Shown: positions 2,524-63,357 of the stretch, piece by piece
Numbering within the stretch: position 1 is the first letter of the stretch
How the letters are laid out: each line of letters opens with the position of its first letter
Notes under the pieces: generated by a model
What the model was told of the DNA's origin: nothing
The model's input: only the letters and a program-made list of their open reading frames with translations
The model's database searches: none
NCBI GenBank assembly: GCA_018819405.1
Contig: JAHJQF010000001.1
Location: forward strand, 513,377-577,376
DNA length: 64,000 nt
Source: Patescibacteria group bacterium
GTDB lineage: Bacteria; Patescibacteriota; Patescibacteriia; UBA1558; GWA2-36-10
Direction: 5' to 3'
Position numbers and translations under genes: made by a program

Positions 2524-3072
2524 ATGAAACAAGAAAAAATAATTTTAGGATTTACTGGATTAATAGCTTGTGGCAAAGGTACAGCTGCTAAATATTTTGC
2601 AAGCAAATATAATGCTGATACTTTTCGTTTTTCTACTATGCTCAGAGATATATTAGATAGATTATATTTGCCTCAATCTAGGGAGAATTTTCAAATTATA
2701 TCTCCAGTATTAAGAGAGGCCTTTGGTCAAGACTTAATGGCTAAAGTAATATCGGAGGATGTTAAAAATTCTCAGGCTGAGATGATAGTTATAGATGGAA
2801 TGCGTCGTCCAGCTGATATAGAATATCTTAAAAAAATTTCTGGTTTTAAAATGATAGCTATAGAAGTAGATGCTAAGGTGCGTTATGAAAGATTAAGAGC
2901 CAGAGGAGAGAATTCTGATGATAAAGAAAAAACTTGGGAGCAATTTCAAGCAGAGCACAAAGCGGAAACAGAAATTTATATTCCAGATTTAATGAAACAA
3001 GCTGATATTACTATAAATAATAACGGAACTTTGGAAGAGTTATATAAACAACTTGATAAATTAGTTGATTAA
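2524..3072 (+). CDS. P-loop nucleotide kinase (dNMP-kinase / dephospho-CoA-kinase-like)
   Basis: Walker [10 protein letters not shown] at the N-terminus in a protein of about 180 aa. Flanked by dCMP deaminase and thyA. The exact substrate cannot be told from sequence. Confidence 0.4.
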
Positions 3073-3075
3073 TTT

Positions 3076-3149
3076 GTCATTGCGAGCCCGAAGGGCGTGG
3101 CAATCTAAATATTGTAGATTGCTTCGTCGCTAAATATTCTCGCAATGAC
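3076..3149. repeat. REP-like nested palindromic element, copy 1
   Basis: Outer 11-bp inverted repeat GTCATTGCGAG/CTCGCAATGAC encloses an inner GGCAATCTA/TAGATTGC palindrome. The copy at 4063-4136 is nearly identical. Confidence 0.7.
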
Positions 3150-3158
3150 GGTAAGAAA

Positions 3159-4055
3159 ATGAAACAATATTTACAACTACTTCAAAAAATAATGGATGAG
3201 GGCGTAGACAAAAGTGACCGTACTGGTGTAGGTACGCGTAGTGTTTTTGGTGCTCAGGCCAGATTTGATTTGTCCGAAGGCTTTCCATTACTCACTACCA
3301 AAAAAGTATTTTTAAAAGGAATAATTCATGAGCTTATCTGGTTTGTCAGGGGGGATACCAATATCAAATATTTGGTAGACAATGGTGTGCGTATTTGGAA
3401 TGAGTGGCCATACCAAAAATATCTGGAAGCCAATGGATTGGCAGATAAATATCCAAAATATACACCTGAGTGGGAAGAAAAAATGCAAGAGTTTGTAGAT
3501 AATGTAAAAAATGATGACGAGTTTGCCAAAAAGTGGGGTGATCTCGGTCCAGTTTATGGCAAACAGTGGCGTGATTTTGGCGGGGTAGACCAACTCAAGG
3601 ATGTGATTGAAAGATTAAAAACAAACCCCAATGACAGGCGTATGATAGTGTCTGCTTGGAATCCACCAGAAATCCCCAAGATGGCTTTGCCACCTTGTCA
3701 TTTGCTTTACCAATTTTATGTAGCTGACGGTAAATTGTCACTACAAATGTATCAAAGGAGCTGTGACACATTTTTGGGTGTGCCTTTTAATATTGCTTCT
3801 TATTCGTTGCTTTTGATGATGGTAGCTCAAGTAGTTGGTTTGAAACCCGGTGTATTCGTTCATGTCTATGGTGATTTGCATATTTATAGCAATCATTTTG
3901 ACCAGGTTAAAGAACAATTATCACGTGAGCCAAGACAACTTCCGATCATGAAAATAAATTCAGATGTCAAAAATATTGAAGATTTTAAATTTGAAGATTT
4001 TACATTAGAGGGCTATGATCCATATCCTATTATAAAAGCACCAATTGCAGTTTAA
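3159..4055 (+). CDS. thyA: thymidylate synthase
   Basis: The [11 protein letters not shown] motif, [11 protein letters not shown] with the catalytic Cys, and the DLHIY motif are canonical ThyA. Confidence 0.95.
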
Positions 4056-4062
4056 TTAATTG

Positions 4063-4136
4063 TCATCGCGAGCCCAAAGGGCGTGGCGATCTAAAATCTT
4101 TTAGATTGCTTCGTCACTAAGTTCCTCGCAATGACA
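4063..4136. repeat. REP-like nested palindromic element, copy 2
   Basis: GTCATCGCGAG...CTCGCAATGAC with the same inner palindrome as copy 1. The two copies flank thyA. Confidence 0.7.
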
Positions 4137-4147
4137 GATAAAAAATC

Positions 4148-4632: not shown

Positions 4633-5037
4633 ATGAGAACAGAAATACCTAGTAATGAGTCTTTGCCTGAATCAAAATCGGAGAGTATTGAATATTATAT
4701 AGGTATGTTTACAAAATTGAGGGACGGATATAGTAATGATGTACCTAAAGAAATTATTCATAGCAATTCCATTGATAGCAACTTTAAGATAAGACGAGGC
4801 TGGTTTACAGCTTTGGTTGGCCAGCTGGTCTTATTTAAAGAAGATTATTTGGAGGGCAGTGACAATAATGAGACTCAAACATTGGTGACAGAAATAGATA
4901 CTTTTGTAAATTATTGTACTAGCCCTGATTTCATAGAAAAAGATAGGACAGAGAAAGAAGATGTAGATAGAGGAGATGAAATTTTAAATAAAGTATTAAA
5001 AGTTTTAGAAAATATAGACAGCCATGAACCCCGTTAG
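4633..5037 (+). CDS. hypothetical protein
   Basis: 134-aa acidic ORF. The last two codons plus the stop (CCC CGT TAG) are supplied by the palindromic element at 5029. Confidence 0.35.
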   Translation: MRTEIPSNESLPESKSESIEYYIGMFTKLRDGYSNDVPKEIIHSNSIDSNFKIRRGWFTALVGQLVLFKEDYLEGSDNNETQTLVTEIDTFVNYCTSPDFIEKDRTEKEDVDRGDEILNKVLKVLENIDSHEPR

Positions 5038-5134
5038 AAATTCACCAGATAACGTTATGGTGTTAAAGTATAATAAATCAGTGTTGATTTTACTAACAGG
5101 GAAAAAGTTATTTAATCATTAATTTCTAACGGGG
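5029..5134. repeat. palindromic intergenic element (TIR CCCCGTTAGAAATT / AATTTCTAACGGGG)
   Basis: 14-bp terminal inverted repeats around an AT-rich spacer that contains TATAAT. The left end supplies the stop of the 4633-5037 ORF. The right end abuts the GTG start of dut. Confidence 0.7.
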
Positions 5135-5556
5135 TGAAAATAAAAGCTAAAAAAATATATCCAGATGCCCAGATGCCCCAGACTATGAGGCCAGGCGACG
5201 CAGCGATGGATTTTTATAGTTATCGTGATTATGAAATCAAACCTGGCGAAAGGATAATAGTAGAAACTGGCATTGCTATTGCTATTCCAGACGGCTATTG
5301 GGGCAATGTCAGGGATCGTGGAGGTCTGCCAGCCAAACACGGCATTCACACTATGGGCGGAGTTTTTGATTCCAATTTTCGTGGTGAAGTGCAAATCATT
5401 ATGATTAATCTAGGGCAAGAAACTTACAAAATAGCTAAAGGTCACCGTATTTGTCAGATGATTATAGAGCGTCATGAAACAGTAGAACTAGAAGAAGTAG
5501 ATGAGCTTGATGAAACAAACAGGGGAGATAATATGCTGGCCTCAAGTGGTTATTAA
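5134..5556 (+). CDS. dut: dUTP diphosphatase
   Basis: GGVFDSNFRGEVQIIMINLG is a dUTPase motif. GTG start lies inside AACGGGGTG. Confidence 0.9.
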   Translation: MKIKAKKIYPDAQMPQTMRPGDAAMDFYSYRDYEIKPGERIIVETGIAIAIPDGYWGNVRDRGGLPAKHGIHTMGGVFDSNFRGEVQIIMINLGQETYKIAKGHRICQMIIERHETVELEEVDELDETNRGDNMLASSGY

Positions 5557-6494: not shown

Positions 6495-6505
6495 TTATAG
6501 TACCT

Positions 6506-6541
6506 GCCCCGTAAAAAATTTGTTATAATAATAAACGGGGC
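6506..6541. repeat. GCCCCGT...ACGGGGC palindrome (sister of the CCCGTTA element family)
   Basis: 7-bp inverted repeat GCCCCGT/ACGGGGC around a 22-nt AT spacer containing TATAAT, between tmk and gatB. Confidence 0.5.
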
Positions 6542-6571
6542 AATAAATAATTCTTAAATTTTTATACTGGG

Positions 6572-8083
6572 GTGGCTAAATACCAAACAATTATAGGTTT
6601 AGAGATTCATTTGCAACTCAAGACAAAGAGTAAGATGTTTTGTCATTGTTCCAATGCCAGTGATGGTAAGGAGCCAAATACTTTGGTGTGCCCAATTTGT
6701 TTGGGTCATCCGGGCACACTTCCAACAGTCAATAAAGAGGCAGTCAAGATGGGTTTGATGATGGCTTTGGCTTTGAATTGTAAGATAAATAAAATATCAA
6801 AGTTTGACAGAAAAAATTATTTTTATCCTGATTTGCCAAAAGGCTATCAGATATCTCAGTTTGATGAGCCTTTGGCTCATGATGGGCACTTGGTTATTGA
6901 AATAGATGAGCAAAAATGGAGTATTGGTATAGAGAGACTACATCTAGAGGAGGACGCTGCCAAAAATATACATAGCACAGGTAAGACTTTGGTAGATTTT
7001 AACCGTGGTGGCACACCACTAGCTGAGATTGTCACTCAACCGGACTTTAAGAGCCCTAAGGAAGCCAAAGAATTTTTAATTGAGCTTCGTCTGATTGCCA
7101 GATATTTGGGAGTTTCTGATGCTGATATGGAAAAAGGCCACATGAGATGTGATGCCAATATATCACTAAGGCCAATGGGTGATCATGATTATTATGCCAA
7201 AACAGAAGTTAAAAATCTAAACTCATTTAAAGCTGTAGAAAAAGCTTTGCTGTTTGAAGAAAAACGACAGGCCAAACTATGGGAGGCCAAGACTCCACCA
7301 CAAAAGACAGAAACTCGCGGTTGGGACGAAGACAAAGAAGAAACAATCCTTCAGCGTACCAAAGAGGGCTCGTCTGATTATCGGTATTTTCCGGAGCCAG
7401 ATTTGCCCCTTTTGCATATTAGTGAAAATTTGCTGACTGAAGTGCAAAGTATGATGCCGGAACTACCGCTTCATAGAAAAGACCGCTTTGTTACAGAATA
7501 TCGCCTTAGCTCAAAAGATGCTTGGGAGCTTATCAATCAAAGAATCTGGGCAAATTATTATGAAAATGTAATGTCCGATTTGCGGGCTTGGATGTTTAAG
7601 TCCAAAGGGCTAGGAGAAGATAGTAAAGAGGCTGAAACTCTTTGGCAGGAACATAAAGCTAAATTATCTAAACTAGCTTATAGTTGGATTACTAGTGAGC
7701 TTTTTGGTCTGATAAAAGGCAAATTCAAGATAGAGGATTTGAAAATCAGTGCCGAAAATATGTCTGAGCTTTTGACGCTTATTTATGAAAAGAAAATAAA
7801 CAGCTCTGCTGGACAGATAATTCTAAAAGAAATGTTTAATGGAGCTGATGACGACCCCTCTCACATTGCCGAGCGTCTTGACCTAGCTCAGATTGAGGAT
7901 GATATGACTTTAGATGGTATTGTAATAAAAGTAATAATGAGCAATCCTGAGCAAGTCAAAGAATATCAGGCCGGCAAAGCAGCTGTGCTCAAGTTTTTAC
8001 TTGGTCTGGTTATGAAAGAGAGTAGGGGTAAAGCCAATCCGCAAAAAGCTGAGGAAATGCTCAAAGAAAAATTAAGCTCTTGA
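6572..8083 (+). CDS. gatB: aspartyl/glutamyl-tRNA amidotransferase subunit B
   Basis: IGLEIHLQLKTKSKMFCHCS and the full-length GatB fold. GTG start. Confidence 0.9.
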   Translation: MAKYQTIIGLEIHLQLKTKSKMFCHCSNASDGKEPNTLVCPICLGHPGTLPTVNKEAVKMGLMMALALNCKINKISKFDRKNYFYPDLPKGYQISQFDEPLAHDGHLVIEIDEQKWSIGIERLHLEEDAAKNIHSTGKTLVDFNRGGTPLAEIVTQPDFKSPKEAKEFLIELRLIARYLGVSDADMEKGHMRCDANISLRPMGDHDYYAKTEVKNLNSFKAVEKALLFEEKRQAKLWEAKTPPQKTETRGWDEDKEETILQRTKEGSSDYRYFPEPDLPLLHISENLLTEVQSMMPELPLHRKDRFVTEYRLSSKDAWELINQRIWANYYENVMSDLRAWMFKSKGLGEDSKEAETLWQEHKAKLSKLAYSWITSELFGLIKGKFKIEDLKISAENMSELLTLIYEKKINSSAGQIILKEMFNGADDDPSHIAERLDLAQIEDDMTLDGIVIKVIMSNPEQVKEYQAGKAAVLKFLLGLVMKESRGKANPQKAEEMLKEKLSS

Positions 8084-13679: not shown

Positions 13680-13771
13680 CCCAGTTAGAAATTATAGAAA
13701 AATATTTTTACAAATAATAATATTTTATTCTGGTTTATAATTGTGAATTTCTAACTGGGTTTATTATAGCA
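13680..13771. repeat. palindromic intergenic element, variant TIR CCCAGTTAGAAATT / AATTTCTAACTGGG
   Basis: Inverted repeats at 13680-13693 and 13746-13759. The tail tctaactgggtttattatagca recurs as a 22-mer at 19427-19448. Confidence 0.65.
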
Positions 13772-17054: not shown

Positions 17055-17104
17055 CCCCGTTAAATGTTCGCCCCGCGAACACTGCAAAGCAGTATTTAAC
17101 GGGG
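17055..17104. repeat. CCCCGTTAAAT / ATTTAACGGGG palindrome with an inner GTTCGC/GCGAAC hairpin
   Basis: Lies between the thrS start and the leader terminator. Same TIR type as the elements at 22921, 35871 and 46736/47005. Confidence 0.6.
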
Positions 17105-18208: not shown

Positions 18209-18247
18209 AAAACCAACCTTCGAGGTTAACCTCGAAGGTTGGTTTTT
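18209..18247. terminator. bidirectional terminator
   Basis: Perfect palindrome aaaaccaaccttcgaggttaacctcgaaggttggttttt that overlaps the stop of the minus-strand gene at 18246. Confidence 0.8.
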
Positions 18248-19370: not shown

Positions 19371-19470
19371 ATTTTTTCAATTTAATTACTTTTAGCTAGT
19401 TAAACCGTTAGAAGCCTAGCTCCTTAGCAGGTCTAACTGGGTTTATTATAGCAGAGATATCAAATTAATA

Positions 19471-22920: not shown

Positions 22921-22956
22921 TTTTTACCCCGTTAAGTCCCGCTTTTCGGGATTTAA
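22921..22956. repeat. CCCGTTAA...TTAACGGG palindrome upstream of dnaE
   Basis: ccccgttaagtcccgcttttcgggatttaacggg is a nested hairpin. The minus strand reads TAACGGGGTAAAAACAAATTATG into dnaE. Confidence 0.6.
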
Positions 22957-23127
22957 CGGGAGTAAATATTTAATGGGATGAATAATAAAACCCGATAACA
23001 CTCGTTAGGGAGATTAAAATTTATCGGGATGTTGATTTATAAAAAATAAATCAAATAATTTGTTTTTGTTTTTGTTTGCCCGAGCGATTTGTGGTGAGCG
23101 TAATTGAATTAAATCGAGGGGTTTTTA

Positions 23128-34210: not shown

Positions 34211-34570
34211 TTATTTGTTGACTTTTTTGGCAGCTGGTTTCTTTTTGCTGGAAGCTTCAGTATTGGCTTTGATTTCAGCTTTTACTTTTTCTTTTTCTTT
34301 TTCCAATTTTCTTTCAGCTGCTTTGGCTTTTTTGATAGCCTTGCCTTTTCTAGTTTTAGCTGCTTTGACTTGCTGTTCTTTGATTTTTTTGAATCTATCA
34401 ACACGTCCGGCAGTATCTACCAGTTTTTCTTTTCCAGTATAAAAAGGATGACAGTGAGAGCAGATTTCTACGTGTATTTCTTTGACAGTAGAGCCAATAG
34501 TAAATACATGTCCGCAAGCACAGCTGACTTTTGCATCTGGATAATAAGTTGGGTGAATATCTTTTTTCAT
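34211..34570 (-). CDS. rpmE: 50S ribosomal protein L31 with a Lys/Ala-rich C-terminal extension
   Basis: [10 protein letters not shown]...CACGH...[10 protein letters not shown] is canonical bL31. About 55 extra K/A-rich residues at the C-terminus. Confidence 0.8.
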
Positions 34571-34649
34571 AGTATTTTTAAAATTTGATACTACAACACA
34601 ATAGCAGAAAGTCCATAAAAAGTCAACCTGTCTGCTGGTAAGCTGGGGG

Positions 34650-34693
34650 TATGAAAAAAAAGAGCCCCCGCCGCGCTTGGCGCGGCGGGGGCT
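34650..34693 (-). terminator. GC-rich rho-independent terminator of the GC-rich operon
   Basis: gcccccgccgcg cttgg cgcggcgggggc. The minus strand continues tcttttttttc. Confidence 0.75.
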
Positions 34694-34708
34694 GGTAAGG
34701 TATGGTCA

Positions 34709-34981
34709 TCAAATCCTCTTGAGAACGAGGTTTTTGATGTCCACCTCAAAGGGGCGGGGGACCAGGGGAACGGCCACCCGCACCATCAGGTCAAAGCCGA
34801 CTACGCAGTTGCTATTCGCTTCGTCGATGATGATGTGCGTGACGGTGGGTACGCTGAGCATGGTGCCTTGGGTACCGACCGGGATCTTGATGTCACCATC
34901 GTTGCCGGGGACAGTATAGTCCTCGACAAAAGTGATCTTCTGTCGCCAGAAGCTGCCGTCAACGGGGATTCTTTTTTCCAA
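34709..34981 (-). CDS. hypothetical 90-aa protein (GC-rich operon, gene 3)
   Basis: TTG start with AAGGAGG 7 nt upstream. About 55% GC. No recognized family. Confidence 0.45.
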   Translation of the reverse strand: MEKRIPVDGSFWRQKITFVEDYTVPGNDGDIKIPVGTQGTMLSVPTVTHIIIDEANSNCVVGFDLMVRVAVPLVPRPFEVDIKNLVLKRI

Positions 34982-34996
34982 GTCTTTCCTCCTTGA

Positions 34997-35182
34997 TTAG
35001 TTGTTCTGGACGCGGATCTTGGTGGCGGGGTTTTGGTCGGCCTTCGAGGTCTGGAGTTGGATATGACGGCACTTGGTGTCGCCGTCTTCGGCGTGGGACT
35101 GGTGCACTTTGCACCACTGTCCTTGAATCAGGCAGGGTTTGGCTTTCAGTGAAGGACTAAAAGCCTGGCAGCTTTGGCACAT
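34997..35182 (-). CDS. Cys-rich 61-aa protein (GC-rich operon, gene 2)
   Basis: MCQSCQAF...C...C...C carries five Cys residues (CxxC plus three more). Abuts gene 1. Confidence 0.4.
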   Translation of the reverse strand: MCQSCQAFSPSLKAKPCLIQGQWCKVHQSHAEDGDTKCRHIQLQTSKADQNPATKIRVQNN

Positions 35183-35183
35183 C

Positions 35184-35645
35184 TCAATCTCCTTGTTCGG
35201 TGTAGTAGTGTTCGGTCGGGTAGTCTGGTAGGGATAACCCTAAAAACATGACTAAACTCATCAGCCCCATGAGAAAAGCGGATAGTACACAGACCCGAGG
35301 CACGGCCAACGAAGATGAATTGACAAAAAGCCAACTGACCCAAGTGACCCCGATGGATACTTTTAGCAGTACAAAGCCATCATTTTGCTGGCCAATAGTG
35401 GCTACGATCAACATTATGCCGGCCAGACTGGGCAGAATAGACAACCAATTGTAGTCTAGGAGCATCAGCGGACCACTGATGCCCAAAAGCACCATGGCCA
35501 GTACTTCGCGCCAGTTGGTCAGCGGACGGGCAAAGGTTAGCCCGACGATGGTCAGGCCCAAGCCGACCACGACAGGCTGGCTGTTGAATAAGGCTATAGC
35601 CAGCATGGTAAAAGCCGACAGGATGGTCAGTAGAACGGATTTCAT
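35184..35645 (-). CDS. integral membrane protein, 4-5 TM (GC-rich operon, gene 1)
   Basis: 153 aa, highly hydrophobic, GC-rich. GGAG-like ribosome-binding site upstream of the ATG at 35645. Confidence 0.5.
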   Translation of the reverse strand: MKSVLLTILSAFTMLAIALFNSQPVVVGLGLTIVGLTFARPLTNWREVLAMVLLGISGPLMLLDYNWLSILPSLAGIMLIVATIGQQNDGFVLLKVSIGVTWVSWLFVNSSSLAVPRVCVLSAFLMGLMSLVMFLGLSLPDYPTEHYYTEQGD

Positions 35646-35870
35646 GGTTTGTCTCCTTGAGTCAGGGTTTTAGCAGATGCGGAGGGTACAGAAGGTGTTG
35701 ATGTCTTCCGGAAAAGTAACCTATGTTTTTACCCCTTATCTTATGCGGATGTAAAATAACTTTAACTAGTATATATAAACTAATTTTGTCTTTTTTGTCA
35801 ATGATGTATTTAGGCCTTGCTTTTTTTGAATTTTTATGTTAAATTAATGTCTGTTTAATTTTAATTCACC

Positions 35871-35930
35871 CCGTTAAATCCCCAACGGGCTAATCCGCTA
35901 GGCGGATTATTTAACGGGGTCAACAAGTAT
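35871..35930. repeat. CCCCGTTAAAT / ATTTAACGGGG palindrome with an inner TAATCCGC/GCGGATTA hairpin
   Basis: Upstream of rpsB. Same TIR type as 17055 and 46736. Confidence 0.6.
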
Positions 35931-38362: not shown

Positions 38363-38369
38363 AAACGGG

Positions 38370-39254
38370 GTGAAAGTAGTCAAAATACAATTTCATAGAT
38401 TAGACAAAGAATATTTTTTTCTGCCTGAATTTAGCGATGACAGTTCCGATATACAGGTAGGGGATTTTGTAGTAGTAGATACTAGTCTTGGTCAAGATAT
38501 AGGTCAGATTACCGGTTGGGATGAATTTGAATCAAGAGCCAAGGATAATAGTGAAGATAATTCCAAAAATACTCCTCAGCTTGTCCAAAATAGCATATCA
38601 GATGTCAAACAAATGACCAGAAAAGCTACGGAAAAAGATCTGCAAGATTGGGAAAATATAAAAGATTTATATCATAAATATTTGACAGAGTGCCGTGAAC
38701 TTTGTCGCAAGCTTGGACTCAAAGAAATGAAGCTCATAGATGCAGCCGAGTCTTTTGATAGAAAAAGATTGACTTTTTATTTTGTGTCTGATTCCAGAGT
38801 TGATTTTCGTGATTTGGTCAAAGAGCTGGTTAGGATTTATCATAAAAAGATTAGGTTACAGCAAGTTGGAGTGCGTGATGCCACCAAAATCTGTGGAGGT
38901 TTTGGGCCTTGTGGTCTGCCTTTGTGTTGCAGCTTGTGGCTAGAAGATGTCGGCAATGTATCTCCGGATTTTATAAAAGATCAGGAGCTTAGTCATCGTG
39001 GGGCTGACCGTCTGACTGGTCCTTGTGGCCGACTCAAATGTTGCTTGCGTTTTGAAGAAGAGGCTTATAAATACAATTTGGAAAAAATGCCAAAGGAAGG
39101 GGACATTATTAAAACTGGTGCTGGGAGAGGCAGAGTAGTATCTGTCCATCCTATGAAGCATACCGTGGAGTTGGAGATTGATGGGGCTCGTGTGGAGTAT
39201 CCTTACCTAGAAGGTAAGTTATGTGAAAAGAGTTGTTCTGAATCAGAAAGGTAA
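38370..39254 (+). CDS. PSP1 C-terminal domain protein (RicT/YaaT-like)
   Basis: The Cys-rich GGFGPCGLPLCCSLW...GPCGRLKCCLRFE is typical of the PSP1 domain. GTG start inside AACGGGGTG, 8 nt after the pyrH stop. It occupies the slot where frr usually sits. Confidence 0.65.
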   Translation: MKVVKIQFHRLDKEYFFLPEFSDDSSDIQVGDFVVVDTSLGQDIGQITGWDEFESRAKDNSEDNSKNTPQLVQNSISDVKQMTRKATEKDLQDWENIKDLYHKYLTECRELCRKLGLKEMKLIDAAESFDRKRLTFYFVSDSRVDFRDLVKELVRIYHKKIRLQQVGVRDATKICGGFGPCGLPLCCSLWLEDVGNVSPDFIKDQELSHRGADRLTGPCGRLKCCLRFEEEAYKYNLEKMPKEGDIIKTGAGRGRVVSVHPMKHTVELEIDGARVEYPYLEGKLCEKSCSESER

Positions 39255-42381: not shown

Positions 42382-42453
42382 CCCCCGTTGGTCCAATTGG
42401 ACAGGACACCTGCCAGTCAGGTAATATAGGTTCAAATCCTATACGGGGTACCA
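42382..42453 (+). tRNA. degenerate tRNA-like element (T-arm + acceptor + CCA, abnormal D/anticodon arms)
   Basis: Good T-arm ATAGG-TTCAAAT-CCTAT and a 3' acceptor ACGGGGT-A-CCA. The D region is the perfect palindrome GTCCAATTGGAC and the anticodon arm folds with a 5-nt loop. Either a tRNA pseudogene or an unusual tRNA. Confidence 0.3.
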
Positions 42454-42692: not shown

Positions 42693-42789
42693 TTTAAAAA
42701 ATAAAATCATTGACAAAAACCCTTAAAATTACTATATTAAATTATACGACGGCGCATATTTGCTGACGGCTAAAATTTTTTTTATAAAT

Positions 42790-42861
42790 CCCGTTAGAAA
42801 TTCACGAGATTTTATCGGGAGATAGTAAATAAAAAATAATTTAACTATAATTTCTAACGGG
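42790..42861. repeat. palindromic element (TIR CCCGTTAGAAATT / AATTTCTAACGGG)
   Basis: Near-identical to the copy at 58361-58439, including the shared 31-mer taatttaactataatttctaacgggatgaat. The right end supplies the ATG of the gene at 42862. Confidence 0.75.
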
Positions 42862-44259
42862 ATGAATTTATCAACATTATTATTACTTTTGGTATATATA
42901 GTAAACGTAGGTCTTTTAGTATATGTTTTGTTTTCCAAAAATAAAAAAAAAGGCTGGCCGTTTTTTTGGATGTTGCTTTTGTTGATTTTATGGCAGAGTA
43001 CAGAATTATTTAGTATTATATATTTTGTTGACAAAGGAGAAACCCTTCTTCTTTTTGCTGTCAGAGCCGGGCTTTTGCCGACTCTTTATCTAGCGCCAGC
43101 TTTTTTGTGGCTGGTTTTTTCTTTGTTTGATAAATGGCAGACTTTCAAACCATGGCGCAAATTTTTGTATTTTCTACCGGCTATTATTATGTCGCCTTTT
43201 GCGTTTACAGATTTTAATACCAGTCAGGTAGTATTTGAGGATGAGAGGATATATTATGTTGGCGGGCCGATTTATTGGTTTTTTGCTGCCTACTTTATCA
43301 TATTGATGAGTTATGGCATGTATTTTTTGATCAAAAACAGAAAACAAGCCAAGGCTATAGTCAGGCGGCAAATAGATTATATTTTTATAGGGACTTTTTT
43401 GACAGCTGCTTGCGGATTGATATTTAACATATTATTGCCAATATTTGGTCTGAACAACTTATATTATCTGGGTGTAAATAGCACTATATTTTTTACAGCT
43501 ATTCTTACTTATGCACTTTTTAGGTATAGATTCTTTGATTTGTATATTTCTTTTTATCGTTTACTGATTGATTTTGTGCGTTTATTTTTTACAGGTTTGA
43601 TCTTTTATATTCTTTATATTTTGCTTTTTGATGTAGCAGATTTGGATTTTTCAGTGACTAGCAATGTCTTGTTGTTTTTGGTTATGATTGCTCTAGTTGG
43701 GCCATTTTTGTTTCGCTTGATAAATAAATTTTTTGTAGCTTATCTGGTCTATCCGGAAAATGACATCAAAAATTCAGAAAACAAAATTGCCGATATTTTG
43801 CGCTCCAGTCGTGATCTGGATGTTTTATTTTCACGTTTGGCTAGAGAGATAAGTAAAATAGTGGACTATCAGGACATTTATTTTTTTCTTTCCAAAAGAA
43901 AAAATGTCGATATGTTTTATCAGGTATTTCCGGTAGGCGAGAGACTGATGAGCAAGACAAATAGTGAGATGCTTTCTTATCTTGCTCGCAAACGAGAAGT
44001 TATAAATAAGGCAGAATTAGAATATATAGGCGCTGAGAAAAGCCTGCTGTCAGAATTGTCCGAAAAGCAAGTAGATCTGGTGTTGCCCATTTTTTATAAT
44101 CGTCAGCTTTTGGGAGCAATACTTATAAATAACAACAATGGTCTGGTATCTATCCAAAAAATACATTTTCTAAAACAGCTAAATAAATATCTAGACATTG
44201 CTATTGGTAGTCTGCTCTTGCATCAACAGGATATGGCGGAAAACAGTCCAAAAGTTTAA
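42862..44259 (+). CDS. 7TM membrane sensor protein (His-kinase-type 7TM N-domain + cytoplasmic domain)
   Basis: 465 aa. The N-terminal multi-TM region is similar to those of 44353, 45048 and the kinase at 51398. The C-terminal soluble domain may be GAF-like. Confidence 0.5.
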   Translation: MNLSTLLLLLVYIVNVGLLVYVLFSKNKKKGWPFFWMLLLLILWQSTELFSIIYFVDKGETLLLFAVRAGLLPTLYLAPAFLWLVFSLFDKWQTFKPWRKFLYFLPAIIMSPFAFTDFNTSQVVFEDERIYYVGGPIYWFFAAYFIILMSYGMYFLIKNRKQAKAIVRRQIDYIFIGTFLTAACGLIFNILLPIFGLNNLYYLGVNSTIFFTAILTYALFRYRFFDLYISFYRLLIDFVRLFFTGLIFYILYILLFDVADLDFSVTSNVLLFLVMIALVGPFLFRLINKFFVAYLVYPENDIKNSENKIADILRSSRDLDVLFSRLAREISKIVDYQDIYFFLSKRKNVDMFYQVFPVGERLMSKTNSEMLSYLARKREVINKAELEYIGAEKSLLSELSEKQVDLVLPIFYNRQLLGAILINNNNGLVSIQKIHFLKQLNKYLDIAIGSLLLHQQDMAENSPKV

Positions 44260-44352
44260 AGTTGAAAAGTATTAACATATAAAATTTGCGTAATTTTTAA
44301 TAATATGGTTATATAATTTGTTCAACTTTTAATTTTTTAACTTACTAACGGG

Positions 44353-45042
44353 ATGAGTATTCAAAACATTTTTCTCTTGATAGCCGCTATAGTCAATTTG
44401 CTTATGAGTATTGTTGTTTTTTCTCGCGGTATAAAAAACAAGGTAAACTTATATTTTGGCTTGCTGACTTTTTTTAATTTTTTATGGGCGCTTGGGCTGA
44501 TATTGGTGAATTTGGCTATTAGCTATGAGTTTACTAGATTTTTTGCCAGTTTTGTTTATCCGGTGGCCTTGATGGTAGTAGTTAGTCTTTATTATTTTAT
44601 TGTTTATTTCCCTTATAAAACTTTTGAATTGCCCAAGCTTTATAAAAATTTAATTACTTTTTTTGTGGGTCTAGTCACTTTATTTTGTATAGGAGCCTAT
44701 AAGATTTTTGTCCAAGATGTTTCTTTTAATCAAGGTGTTACGATTTTTTATGAAATGTGGAGCTATACATCTTATAGTATTTTGTTGGTTATATTAATGA
44801 TTCTTGGTATAGCTGTTTTATTTTCAAAGATTAAAAAAGCCGAGGGTATTTTTAAAGTGCAATTAAAATTAATTTTAATCGCGGTTATTATTGGTACAGC
44901 AGTTGGGAGTTATTCCAATTTATTTATGATGTATTTTTATAATTGTCAGTATAATCACCTAGGTCCTTTATTTACTTTATTTATCAACTTTGTAGTTTTT
45001 TATTTTATATTTTTTAGTCAAAAATCTAAACAGCTATCATAA
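44353..45042 (+). CDS. 7TM membrane protein, paralog A
   Basis: The N-terminus IAAIVNLLMSIVVFSRGIKNKVNLYFGLLTFFNFLWALGL is about 80% identical to the next gene over 50 aa. Confidence 0.5.
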   Translation: MSIQNIFLLIAAIVNLLMSIVVFSRGIKNKVNLYFGLLTFFNFLWALGLILVNLAISYEFTRFFASFVYPVALMVVVSLYYFIVYFPYKTFELPKLYKNLITFFVGLVTLFCIGAYKIFVQDVSFNQGVTIFYEMWSYTSYSILLVILMILGIAVLFSKIKKAEGIFKVQLKLILIAVIIGTAVGSYSNLFMMYFYNCQYNHLGPLFTLFINFVVFYFIFFSQKSKQLS

Positions 45043-45749: not shown

Positions 45750-46742
45750 ATGGCCAAAGCAAATAAAAAAATATATTTACTCTTAGCTGGCGGTACTTGT
45801 ATTTTGGATAAAGATAGCCGTATTTTTGCAATTAATGAAAAAAAAGACATTGATTATTGGTTTGATTTAATGCCAGAGCTGCGTATTTTGGCTGACATAG
45901 AAACAGTTTTGATTTCTAGCGAAGACCAAGTAGTAGACACTAGTGTCTGGCAGAAAATTGCCAAGAGTATTGTAGACAGAGAAAAATCAGCCGATGGTTT
46001 TGTAGTAGTGACAAAAATAGACCAACTTGTCAACACCTCTTTAGCAATTAATTTTTTGTTGCAGAATTTTAAAAAGTCTATTATTTTTACCAGTTCCCAA
46101 GTCAGCGGCAGTAGTTTTGTAGACAAAAAAGAAGTAATAAATAAACTAAAATCAAAACACGGTGGGTTAGGCCTAAGGACCAATTTGATAAACGCTATTC
46201 AAATTGCTTGTGAGCCTCTTCCACAGACAGCTGTTTTGTTTGGTACTAGGTTAATCGCTTCTACCAAAGCAATAGTAGATCTTCAGGATAGTATAAACAA
46301 TTTTATCAGTGTGGAAGGTAATTATTTAGCCAAAATTGATTTTGGTATAAATTTGAAATCGGGACTCAAATATTCCACCAAAAAAACAGAGATTTATCCC
46401 AGTATGTCAGCCAAAGTTTTGGCAATCTATGATATCCCAGGTATTGATTGGCAGTTTGAGCAAACTGATATGGCTAAATACGACGGGCTATTTATCAAAA
46501 TATCTCCCTTTCAAAACCTTGAAAATGTCAAAATAAAAAAAATAAATAATTGGAAAATACCGACAGTAATTTTTAATTCACGATATGTACCAGTTGTAAA
46601 AGGAGCGGTATCTGTATCAGGTTGTACTTTTAACTCAGCTCTTATCAAAACTATTTGGGCCTTGTCAAACAAAAAGAAACTACCAGATTTTGAAAATGTG
46701 ATGAAGCAAAATATAATTGGTGAGTTTAATTCACCCCGTTAA
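45750..46742 (+). CDS. asparaginase/glutaminase-family protein (putative)
   Basis: N-terminal IYLLLAGGTCIL resembles the TGGTIAG threonine motif of L-asparaginases. About 330 aa. The C-terminal SPR* is encoded by the palindromic element. Confidence 0.4.
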   Translation: MAKANKKIYLLLAGGTCILDKDSRIFAINEKKDIDYWFDLMPELRILADIETVLISSEDQVVDTSVWQKIAKSIVDREKSADGFVVVTKIDQLVNTSLAINFLLQNFKKSIIFTSSQVSGSSFVDKKEVINKLKSKHGGLGLRTNLINAIQIACEPLPQTAVLFGTRLIASTKAIVDLQDSINNFISVEGNYLAKIDFGINLKSGLKYSTKKTEIYPSMSAKVLAIYDIPGIDWQFEQTDMAKYDGLFIKISPFQNLENVKIKKINNWKIPTVIFNSRYVPVVKGAVSVSGCTFNSALIKTIWALSNKKKLPDFENVMKQNIIGEFNSPR

Positions 46743-46760
46743 ATAAATTTAAATCATAAT

Positions 46761-47018
46761 ATGAATCATTATGTATATATATTAAAAAGTAAGAAAGATA
46801 ATAACTTCTATGTAGGTTATACTAAAGATTTAAATTTAAGATTTAAGCAACACCAAGAAGCTAAAGTAGAATCAACTAAAAACAGAAGACCATTAAATTT
46901 GATATATTATGAATGTTGTTTAAATCAACAAGATGCTACTAAGAGAGAAAAATATTTAAAAACATATCTTGGTAGATATTATATCAAGAAAAGGCTTAAA
47001 TCTTATTTAACGGGGTAA
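46761..47018 (+). CDS. GIY-YIG nuclease family protein (85 aa)
   Basis: YVYILKS...NFYVGYTKDLNLRFKQH is a GIY-YIG motif. The gene is flanked by CCCCGTTAAAT (46736-46746) and ATTTAACGGGG (47005-47015), and its stop lies in the right repeat. Confidence 0.7.
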   Translation: MNHYVYILKSKKDNNFYVGYTKDLNLRFKQHQEAKVESTKNRRPLNLIYYECCLNQQDATKREKYLKTYLGRYYIKKRLKSYLTG

Positions 47019-47020
47019 AT

Positions 47021-47581
47021 ATGAAAATTTATTTTTATACCAATCAGGAGCTAAATAACACTGACGCCAAAGAAATTATCAATCACTTGAGGCGGGCAGA
47101 TATTGAGGTCATTAGTAGCTTGAGTAGCTCTTCAGATACGCAACTTGAAAGAGTGGATGCTTTTGTTTTTCAGGGACAAAAATTTGATACTAAGGCTGGA
47201 TATTTGACAGCTCTAGCTTTGGCGCAGAGCAAAGAGGTGCTTTGTCTTTTGCCTAGTGGTAGCAAAATTGATAGCTCGTTGGCCAGCCTGAGAGATAATA
47301 GGAATTTGGCCAAGCATTTATTGGTAGAATTTTATACTGATAGTGACTTGTCAGATAAACTGGAAAAATTTTTGACCAAATTGGACAAAAAAACTATCCG
47401 GGATTTGTTTAATATCAAATATACTTTGAGAGTATCGGGCAAGATAAATGATTATCTCAATTGGAAAGCCAGAGAAAAATCTGTCAAAAAAGCCGACTGG
47501 ATAAGGGACAACATACAGGATTTGATGAAAAATGATGAGAAATATCAGGATTTTTTAAAAAATAAATTTAAGGCTGGCTAA
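47021..47581 (+). CDS. hypothetical protein (possible nucleoside 2-deoxyribosyltransferase-like N-domain)
   Basis: ADIEVIS...DAFVFQGQKFDTKAGYLTALALAQSKEVLCLLP loosely resembles the NDT/Rcl fold. Low confidence. Confidence 0.3.
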   Translation: MKIYFYTNQELNNTDAKEIINHLRRADIEVISSLSSSSDTQLERVDAFVFQGQKFDTKAGYLTALALAQSKEVLCLLPSGSKIDSSLASLRDNRNLAKHLLVEFYTDSDLSDKLEKFLTKLDKKTIRDLFNIKYTLRVSGKINDYLNWKAREKSVKKADWIRDNIQDLMKNDEKYQDFLKNKFKAG

Positions 47582-54205: not shown

Positions 54206-54217
54206 TATTAGTTTTAT

Positions 54218-54251
54218 TACCGCCGCGGCAAAGCCGCGGCGGTTTTTTTAT
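54218..54251 (+). terminator. rho-independent terminator
   Basis: accgccgcgg caaa gccgcggcggt followed by ttttttt. Confidence 0.85.
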
Positions 54252-54259
54252 TATTTCTA

Positions 54260-54306
54260 TTGACAAGTTATTTCTATTGCTATAAACATAGCGACGGCTC
54301 TAGAAA
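54260..54306 (+). promoter_or_regulatory. promoter plus palindromic operator-like motif upstream of the radical-SAM gene
   Basis: TTGACA, a 15-bp spacer, TATAAA. GCTATAAACATAGC-GACGGCTCTAGAAA shares a 20-plus-nt core with 60948-60975. Confidence 0.5.
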
Positions 54307-54368
54307 ATGTCCTCTCACAATTTTGTCTTTTTGGTCTAGAAACCTTGGTGCTTAGAAAGGAGCATATT

Positions 54369-55388
54369 ATGTTTTGCTGGCTTACCGTTAACAGATCTTG
54401 TAACATGCGTTGCCATTGGTGCTACGCTAAAGAAAAGATTGATAGTTCTTCTAGTATGACTCTAGATGTTCTGGAGTCAATATTGAGTGTGGTGGCTAAT
54501 AAACCAATAAACGTTTTTACACTTATTGGTGGAGAGCCAACCATACACAAAGATCTATCGTCTTTCATCAAGCGCCTCAAGCCATCACGAGTAATGATGG
54601 TAAGTAATGGTTTGAGATTGGCAAATATGTCATATTTGTTCAATCTCAAGGAGAGTGGTTTGGATGTAGTAGCTCTTTCTTTGAAAGGGGCAAATCAAGC
54701 GGAGTACCTAAAAAACACTGGTGTGCCAGGATTGGATAAGGTAGAACGGGCGGTAGCTAATATGAATGCTTTGGGCATGCAGTACAATATTTCGGTTACG
54801 TTTTCAGATAGTGTCATGGATTCGTTGCCGATGATATTGGATTGGATGCAATCATCCAATGCTCAAAGTATGTCTATAAACTATTGCCGACCTTATGTAG
54901 TCGACGGTAGAATCAGTGCACAGGGGGTTCCTAGCCCCGTAGAGATGGCAGAAAGGACAGTGCAGAGTTACGAGCTGATCAGGAAAAGCGGAGTACGCTG
55001 TACCTTTTCTTTCTTGTTGCCGCTGTGTTTGTTGCCGCGGGAGTTTATTGACTTGCTAGTCTCAAGGAATGAACTCTCAACAATCTGTCAACTTCAGAAG
55101 CATACAGGTATCATTTTTGAACCAGATGGTAGTCTAATCCCTTGTCATCATTTGTTTGACTACAAGCTCGGGAAGCTTGGAGAGGATTTTACTACCGCTG
55201 CGGAATTTGATACCTTTATGGAAGGAGGTAAAATATCAAGGTTTTATCGTAAGACAGGCGGTTTTCCACACGAAAAATGTTTGTCTTGCGATTTGCGAAC
55301 AAGGTGTGGTGGAGGCTGCTTGGTACAACACCTGCAGTATTCTCCTAGTGAATTAATACCCCAAGCTTTTGAAAGGATGGAGAAATGA
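54369..55388 (+). CDS. radical SAM / SPASM-domain peptide-modifying enzyme
   Basis: CNMRCHWC (CxxxCxxC) at the N-terminus. C-terminal SPASM CLSCDLRTRCGGGC. Start at ATG 54369, preceded by AAAGGAG. Confidence 0.8.
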   Translation: MFCWLTVNRSCNMRCHWCYAKEKIDSSSSMTLDVLESILSVVANKPINVFTLIGGEPTIHKDLSSFIKRLKPSRVMMVSNGLRLANMSYLFNLKESGLDVVALSLKGANQAEYLKNTGVPGLDKVERAVANMNALGMQYNISVTFSDSVMDSLPMILDWMQSSNAQSMSINYCRPYVVDGRISAQGVPSPVEMAERTVQSYELIRKSGVRCTFSFLLPLCLLPREFIDLLVSRNELSTICQLQKHTGIIFEPDGSLIPCHHLFDYKLGKLGEDFTTAAEFDTFMEGGKISRFYRKTGGFPHEKCLSCDLRTRCGGGCLVQHLQYSPSELIPQAFERMEK

Positions 55389-55546
55389 ACAACAACCAGT
55401 CTGATCTTCGGCAGATCGTCGATGATATGCTGGACAAGCGTATCGAGACGGGAGAAGATCTCAGTGGCTTCAGCATCCGTGGTGCTGTGGCAGGAGAGAT
55501 GATCTGTGGCGACTGCGGAGATGGCGATTGCGAATGTAGCTCGTAG
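55385..55546 (+). CDS. 53-aa Cys-rich peptide, putative RiPP precursor (not in the ORF track)
   Basis: ATGA overlap with the radical-SAM stop. Translation MNNNQSDLRQIVDDMLDKRIETGEDLSGFSIRGAVAGEMICGDCGDGDCECSS. About 52% GC. Hairpin after the stop. Confidence 0.5.
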   Translation: MNNNQSDLRQIVDDMLDKRIETGEDLSGFSIRGAVAGEMICGDCGDGDCECSS

Positions 55547-55601
55547 AGCTCTTCGTGATTTTACGGGGGTATGTCTGTAGCATGCCCCCACAATAAAGTT
55601 T

Positions 55602-56120
55602 ATGAAATTTATATATAACAAAGAAATTGACCAGCAGTGTCATGATAGATTGTCAGCTCATGATAGTATTTTTGGTGAAGTCAAAAAAACTGGCAGCTAC
55701 CCAGTGACCGAAGAGATTGTCAAACAGTTTAATGATAAATGGACAGAAGAAATTGATAAATATTTTGTAGCTGGTATATATAAAATATTTAAAAAATCAA
55801 TTCCAGAAAATTTTACAGTATATATAAATTCCACGCCTTATTCTATGGATATAGAGGACGGAATATCTATTTCAGCCTCATCTATCAATGTAATGATAAT
55901 GCTTGTTTGCCACGAGGCCAATCACTATATGTTTAGAAAGAGTGATTATAAAAATAAATATTTTCCAAATAAAGATATAGAAGAGGCTAAAGAGATTTTT
56001 ACAGTAGTAAATAATATTTATTTCAAAGATATTATGGAAAAAGAGGACAAGGCTTGGAGTAAATTTTTTGAAGAAAGAGAACAATTTTTACAACGATGGA
56101 AAGATCGCTTTGCCGGGTAA
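55602..56120 (+). CDS. HExxH-motif protein (putative zinc metallopeptidase)
   Basis: 172 aa containing VCHEANHYMF. Sits downstream of the peptide. Confidence 0.45.
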   Translation: MKFIYNKEIDQQCHDRLSAHDSIFGEVKKTGSYPVTEEIVKQFNDKWTEEIDKYFVAGIYKIFKKSIPENFTVYINSTPYSMDIEDGISISASSINVMIMLVCHEANHYMFRKSDYKNKYFPNKDIEEAKEIFTVVNNIYFKDIMEKEDKAWSKFFEEREQFLQRWKDRFAG

Positions 56121-56291
56121 ATTCCAGCCCTCGGCAACTCTGTCCCACGCATCTTTCGCTGCCAATCGTGATTTTTACGCCAGAAAGGAGGCTCAGTACA
56201 TCTGATTTTCCTAGGGGGCAGACGTATTTTGCATCTTGCTGATATGTCTGCCTCCACACTTTATATATAATATAGTTTTATATATTGTAGT

Positions 56292-56320
56292 TTGACAACA
56301 ATTTGAGGATGCCTTATAAT
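56292..56320 (+). promoter_or_regulatory. consensus sigma70 promoter of the proBCA leader
   Basis: TTGACA, exactly 17 bp, then TATAAT. Confidence 0.65.
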
Positions 56321-56331
56321 TTTTGATAGTT

Positions 56332-56473
56332 ATGAAAAAATTATTCAGCAACAACCAAGCCCCGCATCCTCGCGAAATAGATTTTAGCGCCCGCTAAGGG
56401 ATGTTGTTGTTTTGAATATATTAAGTATAAATTTTATTAAGTAATAACTCTTGGCAGCGGCTAAGAGTTTTTT
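56332..56473 (+). promoter_or_regulatory. proB leader: 21-codon uORF plus an intrinsic terminator 6 nt before the proB ATG (attenuator-like)
   Basis: uORF MKKLFSNNQAPHPREIDFSAR at 56332-56397. Hairpin ctcttggcagcggctaagag plus tttttt at 56448-56473. Confidence 0.4.
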
Positions 56474-56479
56474 GTGAAT

Positions 56480-58368: not shown

Positions 58369-58439
58369 AAATTCACAAAATTCTGACAGGATATAATAGT
58401 AAATAATTAATATATAATTTAACTATAATTTCTAACGGG
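58361..58439. repeat. palindromic element (TIR CCCGTTAGAAATT / AATTTCTAACGGG)
   Basis: The left end gives the proC stop and the right end gives the proA ATG. Near-identical to 42790-42861. Confidence 0.75.
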
Positions 58440-59699: not shown

Positions 59700-59727
59700 A
59701 AATATATTTAAAAGAAATATAATTAAA

Positions 59728-60822: not shown

Positions 60823-60856
60823 AAAAGCAGGTTTCAAAGAAACTGGCAAAATAAAT

Positions 60857-60898
60857 ACAACCTCCGAGGTTAATCAACCTCCGAGGTTGTTTTTTTAC
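60857..60898 (+). terminator. rho-independent terminator
   Basis: caacctccgagg...cctccgaggttg followed by ttttttt. Confidence 0.7.
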
Positions 60899-60928
60899 TT
60901 GACAGTCTTTTTTTGTTGTTATATATTT

Positions 60929-60975: not shown

Positions 60976-61033
60976 TAGCTCTTTAAAATAAAGAGAGAAA
61001 GGTAATTGACTTCCTAAGAGAAAGGAGGAAATC

Positions 61034-63328: not shown

Positions 63329-63357
63329 TAAATAGTATAAAAACCACCGAGGAGAAA

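Follow-up and report, generated by a model that had tools for sequence, protein, structure and literature searches.

Among the described small repeats of bacteria, the Correia elements (CREE) of Neisseria and MITEAba12 of Acinetobacter are short, non-coding, multi-copy sequences with terminal inverted repeats (TIRs) and a target-site duplication (TSD) of fixed length, which are polymorphic between relatives, lie at gene boundaries, and can alter neighbouring expression signals. Here, we analyze a family of palindromic elements with the same features, which occurs in 64 kb of genomic DNA (positions 513,377–577,376 of contig JAHJQF010000001.1; hereafter "the window") from a member of the Patescibacteria, or candidate phyla radiation (CPR). 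Genomes of these ultra-small bacteria comprise ~1 Mb and are regarded as streamlined. The elements differ from CREE and MITEAba12 in their asymmetric target A↓TGAA (the arrow marks the start of the duplicated bases), which is usually a start codon, and in the duplication of 4 bp, whereas Correia elements use TA. They also differ in that insertion is orientation-specific, the terminal purine rebuilds an ATG or GTG, the outermost TIR bases covary, and the hosts are Patescibacteria. Literature searches on MITEs (miniature inverted-repeat transposable elements), inverted repeats or GIY-YIG proteins in CPR bacteria gave no prior description. We regard it as likely that the family represents a non-autonomous MITE-like element widespread in the CPR, which targets A↓TGAA almost always in one orientation with a 4-bp duplication and restores the start codon by means of its own final base.

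Three other kinds of palindromic repeats resemble these elements in part. The REP/BIME/REPIN-RAYT systems and the IS200/IS605-derived PATEs are extragenic hairpin repeats in fixed orientation beside a 4–5-nt target and are mobilized in trans by a small nuclease whose substrate is the folded single strand; they make no TSD and need an HUH Y1 transposase, whereas the elements described here have matched flanks of 11 different sequences. Rickettsia palindromic elements (RPE) are palindromic mini-elements too and survive in gene-dense, reduced genomes by preserving the reading frame. However, RPE lie in frame inside genes and are translated, whereas the CPR elements occupy the start-codon position and contribute one coding base to the downstream gene. 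Integron attC sites, imperfect palindromes of 57–141 bp at gene boundaries, have GTTRRRY / RYYYAAC-like cores that resemble GTTAGAA / TTCTAAC in the elements. This reading was rejected because the order of the cores relative to the genes (in integrons, RYYYAAC 5' and GTTRRRY 3') is reversed, the copies stand far apart between housekeeping genes (at 5, 13.7, 42.8 and 58.4 kb), and TSDs are present; neither an integrase nor a cassette array was seen.

A further system of interest is the Ssn family (cd10448) of ~94-aa single-domain GIY-YIG nucleases, which cut single-stranded DNA next to hairpin repeats (NTS/SRM, the latter standing for Ssn-related motifs). These repeats flank the ssn nuclease gene and are dispersed in hundreds, and the authors remark on the insertion sequence (IS)-like architecture (Chenal et al. 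2025, PMC11893778).

Palindromic elements in the window and in other Patescibacteria

The window (36% GC, genetic code table 11) has a gene content of Patescibacteria type, as seen from a DUF5667 protein, from small housekeeping genes and from the scarcity of Shine-Dalgarno sequences. The arms CCCGTTAGAAATT / AATTTCTAACGGG form three exact inverted pairs in it (at ~5030/5121, 42790/42849 and 58361/58427), and a variant pair, CCCAGTTAG / CTAACTGGG, lies at 13680/13746. An arm search allowing ≤2 mismatches returned 10 matches in the window compared to 2.1 expected, and none of 100 shuffles reached 10. In total, four full elements, one mini copy and one solo end were recognized (Table 1). The polarity relative to genes was alike in all four full copies, with the CAC-bearing arm upstream; copy 4 is on the minus strand between minus-strand genes and lies directly downstream of a TGCTATAAT box, ~33 nt upstream of an ATG at 13646. 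An earlier note on this DNA, made from the sequence alone, had listed three full copies, which are indeed present at those places, with bounds that we refined so as to include the covarying terminal base. It had also listed a variant ending at 13771, which in fact ends at 13759 with the further 12 nt being flank, and a 22-mer fragment at 19427–19448, which represents the end of the internally deleted mini copy plus the 12-nt flank that this copy has in common with copy 4.

Table 1 Coordinates of the elements and related features in the window.
Feature	Position	Strand	Description
MITE copy 1	5029–5134	+	106 bp; left arm CCCC-GTTAGAAATT-CAC 5029–5045; right arm AATTTCTAAC-GGGG 5121–5134
TSD of copy 1 (TGAA)	left 5025–5028, right 5135–5138		From alignment to relative
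MITE copy 2	42789–42862	+	74 bp; 5' leader of 7TM sensor gene 42862–44259
MITE copy 3	58360–58440	+	81 bp; between proC and proA; TSD TGAA 58356–59, 58441–44
MITE copy 4	13680–13759	-	80 bp; CCCA/TGGG variant; TSD TTTA 13676–79, 13760–63 (TAAA in element orientation)
Internally deleted mini copy	19405–19441	-	~37 nt; CCCAGTTAGA...TTCTAACGG; 12-nt upstream flank TGCTATAATAAA common to copy 4; read from sequence
Solo right end	44340–44353	+	ACTTACTAACGGG+A abutting ATG of gene 44353–45042
Possible right-end footprint	38364–38372	+	AACGGGGTG at GTG start of PSP1-domain gene; L008 and L080 carry full element at that site
Hairpin-containing insert at gatB start	6498–6572	+	75 bp; CCCCGTAAAAAATT...AAACGGGG...ACTGGGG; absent in L158
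295-bp cassette	46729–47022	+	TIR TTCACCCCGTTAAATAA ... TTATTTAACGGGGTAA around 85-aa GIY-YIG ORF 46761–47018
Short GTTAAAT-arm element	17055–17104	not assigned	CCCCGTTAAAT, two GC hairpins, ATTTAACGGGG; upstream of thrS
Short GTTAAAT/GTTAAGT-arm element	22927–22961	not assigned	Upstream of dnaE
Short GTTAAAT-arm element	35869–35919	not assigned	Upstream of rpsB; 20-nt left end TTTAATTCACCCCGTTAAAT common to GIY-YIG cassette

Further members of the family were collected with the pattern GTTAGAAATTCAC, 41–101 nt, then AATTTCTAAC, in which the inner arms had to be exact. As the pattern did not constrain the flanks, these are unbiased. A scan of one genome per species yielded 38 loci in 19 assemblies, and a metagenome scan added 80 loci. 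After removal of duplicates, 91 elements from the 19 assemblies and the metagenomes remained, all of Patescibacteria type, and the counts below refer to this set. The assembly names comprise Yanofsky-, Jorgensen-, Portnoy-, Komeili- and Kerfeldbacteria, Parcubacteria, Paceibacterota and "Patescibacteria group", as well as a few evidently mislabelled metagenome-assembled genomes. Hence, the family is spread through many CPR lineages. Carriage by phages was rejected, as neither the elements nor the cassette described below occurred in viral contigs, and phage records contained no similar DNA.

The elements have the form YCCN-GTTAGAAATT(CAC) ... AATTTCTAAC-N'GGR around an AT-rich, poorly conserved core. 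Their length is 72–132 bp, most falling into size classes of ~80 and ~104 bp, and the arms comprise 14–15 bp with 97% of cells paired, the invariance of the inner arms being a property of the search pattern. Beyond GTTAG / CTAAC, the outer 4 bp show complementarity and a covariation that was not attained in any of 500 shuffles and collapsed in slid registers. The terminal pair was C-G in 43 and U-A in 42 copies and unpaired in three, and the fourth pair was C-G in 47, A-U in 12 and G-C in seven copies; G.U pairs in the stem were no more frequent than expected relative to other mismatches. Folding of the arms gives a 15-bp stem, to which the first base of the start codon belongs (z-scores −4.3 to −5.4). 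Internal open reading frames (ORFs) are limited to leftover ORFs of 9–36 codons. Tandem copies are common. The loci contain 142 paired arms, and the 64-kb window has 4–6 copies. In L046, L065, L070 and L078 (labels of this kind denote loci used as comparison sequences), a degenerate copy, TTCA, an intact copy, TGAA and a gene follow each other in tandem ~100–260 nt upstream of the listed element.

Several identities for this structure were rejected. No T-run that would mark an intrinsic terminator was found after the stem. Only tRNAs in the window reached the gathering threshold of Rfam 15, and E-value searches with two copies gave chance-level matches, which speaks against a known RNA family or riboswitch. 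A pair of transcription-factor operators does not agree with the spacing, which varies from 43 to 100 bp, nor with the covariation of the outer bases. Finally, the spacer is too short for an invertible promoter switch, and the orientation relative to genes is fixed, not mixed.

Target-site duplications and empty orthologous sites

The 4-nt flanks on both sides of the element were identical in 54 of the 91 copies, whereas shuffled pairings averaged 23.5 and never exceeded 36 among 10,000. Identity was not confined to the most common flank, as 20 of the 38 copies with a right flank other than TGAA showed it too. Altogether, 11 distinct 4-mers were duplicated (TGAA, TAAA, TTCA, TTGA, CTAA, TCCA, TGGA, TTTA, TTAG, CTCA and TATG). 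Identical flanks of such diverse sequence therefore represent a 4-bp TSD.

Evidence for insertion came from a close relative (loci L158/L159), which has a 91% identical dUTPase and the same gene order (dCMP deaminase, AAA, thyA, DHFR, 137-aa ORF, dut, 82-aa ORF, tmk, gatB). At the place of copy 1, the relative has the empty site ...ATGAAAATT..., whereas the window reads ATGAA(106 bp)TGAAAAT. With more of the flanks, ...GTCATGAAAATTAAAGC in L158/L159 corresponds to ...GCCATGAA(106 bp)TGAAAATAAAAGC in the window, and ...GCCAGTC ATGAA AATTAAAGC... to ...GACAGCC ATGAA (CCCCGTTAG ... CTAACGGGG) TGAA AATAAAAGC. The two BLAST blocks on either side of the insertion (L158 1609–2505 and 2502–3866) overlap by exactly the four duplicated nt. 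The insertion of copy 1 changed the C-terminus of the upstream protein from HEN-stop to HEPR-stop and the dut start from ATG to GTG, the final G of the element being the first base of this GTG (5134–5136).

Such presence/absence differences, between relatives whose flanks are ~80–90% identical, were also found elsewhere. At one ATGAA gene start the element is present in L016 and L020 and absent from L031 and L093; a second site is filled in L053 (TSD TGGA) and empty in L013; and a third is filled in L031 and L020 and empty in L016. At a pyrH-like/PSP1 junction, L008 and L080 carry the element, whereas the window (38364–38372) has only AAACGGGGTG. In the window, the gatB start is GTG after ...ACTGGGG, compared to ATG in L158, where only 7 nt separate tmk from gatB, and the insert at this start is probably a decayed relative of the family.

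These results show the units to be MITE-like mobile elements, which are short and without coding capacity for a transposase, have TIRs and a TSD of fixed length and variable sequence, and occur as dispersed, polymorphic copies. They also bear out the proposal of the earlier note that MITE-like mobile units insert at gene boundaries, as both the TSDs and the filled and empty orthologous sites, including that of the reported copy, were found. Its alternative, a lineage-specific gene-boundary signal, was rejected, since only ~5 of the ~67 gene boundaries in the window carry the motif and presence/absence differences exist.

An immobile, conserved cis-regulatory structure in RNA or DNA, such as a hairpin in the 5' untranslated region, an operator pair or a vertically inherited boundary signal, is scarcely tenable for the same family. 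It would account for an arm sequence that recurs across many lineages (with the caveat that the search required exact arms), for the covarying stem, for the fixed position at start codons and for the stable hairpin. However, it is contradicted by the existence of empty sites, and variable 4-nt direct repeats flanking the copies, clean presence/absence between relatives, tandem copies, unrelated downstream genes, the few occupied window boundaries, the missing Rfam match and the lack of preference for G.U pairs all stand against it.

Target preference and rebuilding of start codons

The base preceding the TSD was A in 44 of the 54 copies with identical flanks, and the preferred target is A↓TGAA, followed by A↓TAAA. 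Insertion is strongly oriented with respect to this target (TGAA 34 vs. TTCA 2; TAAA 9 vs. TTTA 1). Because the same bias exists at TAAA sites, which are mostly not start codons, it appears to be intrinsic to insertion.

The right end of the element plus the duplicated TG gives RTG in 60 of the 91 copies (39 ATG, 21 GTG), and the right junction coincides exactly with the beginning of an ORF of ≥60 aa in 54 copies, vs. seven at the other end. All three plus-strand copies of the window abut ATG or GTG as had been reported, and this A or G is itself part of the element, namely its terminal, base-paired nucleotide. The claim that the element supplies the start codon thus holds for the first base, while the remainder is the pre-existing A↓TGAA target. 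Likewise, copies 2 and 3 do share a 31/32-mer, but the Met-Asn codons at the start of the downstream genes are not encoded by the element, as TGAA is duplicated host sequence. The proA ATG begins with the final A of copy 3. No ORF lies upstream of copy 2, which is flanked by TAAA (42785–88) and TGAA (42863–66), from which it follows that the old ATG decayed to ATA. The genes downstream of elements are unrelated and include dut, the sensor gene, proA, the gene of a DUF5667 protein and glycosyltransferase-like genes, among others.

The left arm had been described as ending three different genes identically. This applies to only two genes that end in a GTTAG arm, 4633–5037 and proC (57547–58368), the latter of which reads into the left arm of copy 3 and stops at TAG 58366–68. 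The third gene with a Pro-Arg-stop end, 45750–46742, terminates with CGT TAA and belongs to the related GTTAAAT-arm family. Across the family, a long upstream ORF is terminated by the left-arm TAG in only five of the 91 copies, two of them in the window. Stop-codon supply does occur, but it is a side effect of insertion where genes overlapped.

The window contains 207 ATGAA sites on both strands, 15 of which are gene starts and eight otherwise intergenic, and ATGAA is the commonest gene start (15 of 67 genes). Start codons make up 65% of the non-genic ATGAA sites, compared to 59% of the elements being located on start codons. Target preference and the loss of intragenic insertions would thus suffice to explain why ~60% of the surviving copies are on start codons, provided that the gene survives the insertion, and it does so because the terminal purine rebuilds its start codon.

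Other models of the target were not supported. A palindromic target RTNNAY regenerated by the element ends was rejected, since the base following the TSD is without preference and a match at the fifth base exists in only 17 of 54 copies. A programmed bypass of translation from one ATGAA repeat to the other was rejected because the upstream and downstream ORFs encode unrelated proteins and copy 2 lacks an upstream ORF. Insertion of the IS200/IS605 type without duplication agrees with the oriented A↓TGAA target, but rare 4-mers (TCCA, TTGA, CTCA and TATG, among others) are duplicated. Neither RAYT nor TnpA turned up in the Pfam annotations made, although no search aimed at these proteins was run.

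The elements as possible portable promoters

The earlier note had interpreted the elements as portable promoters or leaderless starts. According to this explanation, a −10 box ~10 nt from the right end drives the downstream gene, with transcription beginning a few bases ahead of the rebuilt start codon, and is the reason why copies are kept. TATAAT indeed stands directly before the right arm in the window copies 2, 3 and 4, a TAnnnT hexamer occurs in one of two registers in 56 of the 91 copies, and many window genes lack a Shine-Dalgarno sequence. The hexamer at the other arm, GTGAAT, is without the key A at position 2, an asymmetry that agrees with the 54:7 orientation bias relative to genes. 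However, the TATAAT-like hexamers seen in the window copies are not conserved across the family: canonical TAnAAT precedes the right arm in only 26 of the 91 copies, and copy 1 has ATTAAT. A consensus promoter scan found −35/−10 pairs inside the copies no more often than expected from shuffling. Furthermore, native promoters persist upstream of copy 2 (a strong promoter-like site at 42710–42738) and of copy 4, which follows the TGCTATAAT box, the core of the element is poorly conserved, and TAAA insertions away from start codons are equally biased (9:1), which points to a bias of the insertion mechanism. We therefore consider a promoter function unlikely, and the claim remained unsupported.

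A GIY-YIG cassette with related ends

CCCGTTA is enriched in the window (16 occurrences vs. 3.1 expected), and a second type of arms, CCCCGTTAAAT / ATTTAACGGGG (GTTAAAT arms), was found in addition to the GTTAGAAATT arms. It delimits three short elements, and one pair of arms brackets the gene for an 85-aa GIY-YIG protein in a 295-bp cassette (Table 1); the last codons of this gene (Tyr-Leu-Thr-Gly-stop) are located within the right arm. The short copies of the window have GC-rich inner hairpins, and in other loci the GTTAAAT-arm elements occur as ~130-bp AT-rich versions. The cassette ends (YCCY-GTTA... / ...TAAC-RGGG-TRA) resemble the ends of the GTTAGAAATT-arm elements, and the right end of these elements, read in the frame of the cassette, gives Leu-Thr-Gly-stop.

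The 85-aa protein matches Pfam PF01541 (GIY-YIG) and nothing specific in NCBIfam, and its nearest solved structures are the UPF0213 proteins 1ZG2 and 1YWL. It has 2,734 homologues, the best 120 of which are 84–134 aa long (mostly 84–85 aa) and share the C-terminus SYLTG in 108 cases. In six other lineages that were inspected (seven if two close relatives are counted separately), the gene lies between CCCYGTTAAATAA / TTATTTAACRGGG. These arms pair in most lineages, with one mismatch in L150, and where lineages differ by CG to TG/CA, the change is compensatory and keeps the Thr codon synonymous. In close relatives, the 295-nt cassette is ~90% identical and located in three different genomic contexts, with homology ending at the arms. 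The cassette is thus itself mobile.

The cassette is the best lead for a mobilizer of the elements, and a candidate parent. It may tentatively be viewed as an autonomous, GIY-YIG-driven transposon of a new class, which would move on hairpin ends and from which both the GTTAGAAATT and the GTTAAAT elements would derive, with start-codon insertions shaping the gene starts of Patescibacteria. If so, it would be among the smallest conceivable autonomous transposons. In the loci with elements, three distant homologues of the GIY-YIG gene lie nearby, none of them bracketed by the element arms, and a cassette with GTTAGAAATT arms was not found. In L047, an element with the TSD TCCA is located at the apparent 3' end of a tRNA gene (...GGTTCGATCCCGCTACGGTCCA), ~110 nt upstream of a GIY-YIG gene. 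The latter is longer and followed by GTCATTCC...GGAATGAC hairpins of the NTS/SRM type.

The cassette and its dispersed relatives are reminiscent of the NTS-ssnA-NTS arrangement, in which a single-domain GIY-YIG gene (~85–94 aa for the two systems) lies between inverted repeats, with hairpin repeats dispersed near genes. Such flanking on both sides was seen for the GTTAAAT-arm family and not for the GTTAGAAATT arms. The elements could be recognition hairpins of an Ssn-type single-strand nuclease, which the host keeps to modulate DNA uptake or recombination near particular genes. The published system does pair a small single-domain GIY-YIG gene between inverted repeats with hundreds of related hairpin repeats around genes, and the window has such a gene, whose arms share the core YCCNGTTA with the elements. 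However, the SRM consensus HGTCWYN(0-2)YYVSBRHN(0-5)WNVSBRGN(0-2)RNCYNB is absent from all 91 elements and from the window, the arms pair across the whole gene or element and not as local hairpins of 20–50 nt, and the closest solved relatives of the 85-aa protein belong to UPF0213. In addition, TSDs and empty sites reveal that insertions took place, and these would not be required of a signal maintained by the host alone. We thus rate this explanation as quite improbable, noting that reading by the host as an Ssn-type signal and mobility are not mutually exclusive. We treat the likeness as one in the working of the system, without placing the cassette protein in the Ssn family.

Alternatively, the elements could be classical MITEs, derived from and moved in trans by an IS with the same repeats that encodes a DDE transposase and makes a 4-bp staggered cut, and the GIY-YIG cassette would then be an unrelated look-alike. 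TIRs combined with a TSD that is constant in length but variable in sequence are the hallmark of transposition by DDE enzymes, and the GIY-YIG cassette family has no TSD and different arm sequences. On the other hand, insertion is specific in orientation to an asymmetric target although the arms are symmetric, and the outermost bases, usually the most conserved ones in DDE elements, are variable and covary here. Moreover, no long element or transposase gene between GTTAGAAATT-type arms, and hence no autonomous element with the same TIRs or parent IS, was found in the window or the 118 loci (~0.9 Mb), a difference from CREE and MITEAba12. In our view, a DDE-mobilized MITE is possible but doubtful.

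Proposed mechanism of insertion and persistence

For the widespread MITE-like element favoured here, the sequences show that insertion into an ATGAA that starts a gene leaves the old ATG upstream, and that the last A or G of the element together with the duplicated TG creates a new ATG or GTG before the untouched ORF. An upstream gene that formerly overlapped the start codon reads into the left arm and stops at its TAG. Beyond this, we propose the following. With ATGAA as the commonest gene start in these AT-rich genomes and intragenic insertions being lost, most survivors would be expected exactly on start codons. The complementarity of the outer 4 bp may be maintained through correction templated by the hairpin or through selection acting on a hairpin intermediate. 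Downstream expression would persist if the 15-bp hairpin is opened by ribosomes translating the upstream gene or the leftover ORF of 9–36 codons, which begins at the old ATG (MNPVRNS...). The mobilizing enzyme presumably acts in trans, the best candidate being the 85-aa GIY-YIG nuclease of the 295-bp mobile cassette with its related ends.

A number of points weigh against this account. Elements with TIRs and TSD are not usually oriented so strictly to an asymmetric target, and the model leaves the orientation-specific insertion unexplained given the symmetric arms. UGAA/UGAA can also pair via tandem G.A mismatches, which makes the TGAA repeat alone ambiguous, and the case for mobility therefore rests on the rarer 4-mers and the empty sites. 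Seven of the 91 copies have inverted TTCA...TGAA flanks, which a simple TSD model does not explain. The missing autonomous element with GTTAGAAATT arms counts here as well. The cassette and its short derivatives differ from the elements in arm sequence and have inverted flanks (TTYA...TRAA), hence no TSD, and to our knowledge GIY-YIG nucleases do not join DNA. What we suggest for downstream expression is inferred from the sequence, and the leftover ORF shows no constraint on frame or stop position. Stop-start coupling of this ORF was rejected, because its frames are distributed 16/12/8 and its stops range from 18 nt past to 84 nt before the rebuilt start.

Consequences for CPR genomes

The family illustrates how selfish elements can persist in gene-dense DNA, by landing on a start codon and repairing this codon with their own last base. 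Four intergenic gaps in the 6-kb block shared with the close relative are insertions of palindromic mini-elements. Such insertions can convert ATG to GTG, extend the leader by a hairpin together with a short leftover ORF, and rewrite the C-terminus of an overlapping upstream gene, with effects on gene callers and on the start-codon statistics of CPR genomes. The elements are ready-made markers of strain-level polymorphism and may cause assembly breaks. Should the GIY-YIG cassette prove to be the mobilizer, it would represent a new enzymatic class in prokaryotic transposition and provide a concrete function for Ssn-type nucleases outside Neisseria.

Other features of the window

The proA ORF downstream of copy 3 contains an in-frame TAG at 58650–58652 (LMLND-stop-RLDEI), which could reflect a pseudogene, a sequencing error or readthrough. 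An alternative genetic code was rejected, since TAG is a usual stop elsewhere and the ORF statistics fit table 11. The segment ~54210–60899 (radical-SAM gene, proB, proC, element, proA) is missing at the syntenic place in the relative L157 (3998–5355), which is 93% identical over window positions 60899–63343 and has a hydrolase gene and an 88-aa ORF instead.

Two palindromic inserts at 3066–3158 and 4059–4143 (GTCATTGCGAG...GCAATC...GATTGC...CTCGCAATGAC) flank thyA (3159–4055), and both are absent from the syntenic block of L158. Their core resembles the Neisseria NTS (CGTCATTCCCGCG...) but fails the published SRM consensus. Palindromes of the type AACCTYSGAGGTT recur between genes at ~1140–1160, 18209–18246 and 60853–60894, twice as tandem pairs, and are possibly terminators or another repeat family. 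The region ~34500–35700 has a GC content of 0.44 compared to ~0.36 and consists of long, GC-rich intergenic sequence with only short ORFs and no Rfam match at the gathering threshold. Finally, a third tRNA-like gene at 42382–42450, between tRNA-Ala and tRNA-Ser, scored 45.6 bits with Rfam but was not called by ARAGORN.

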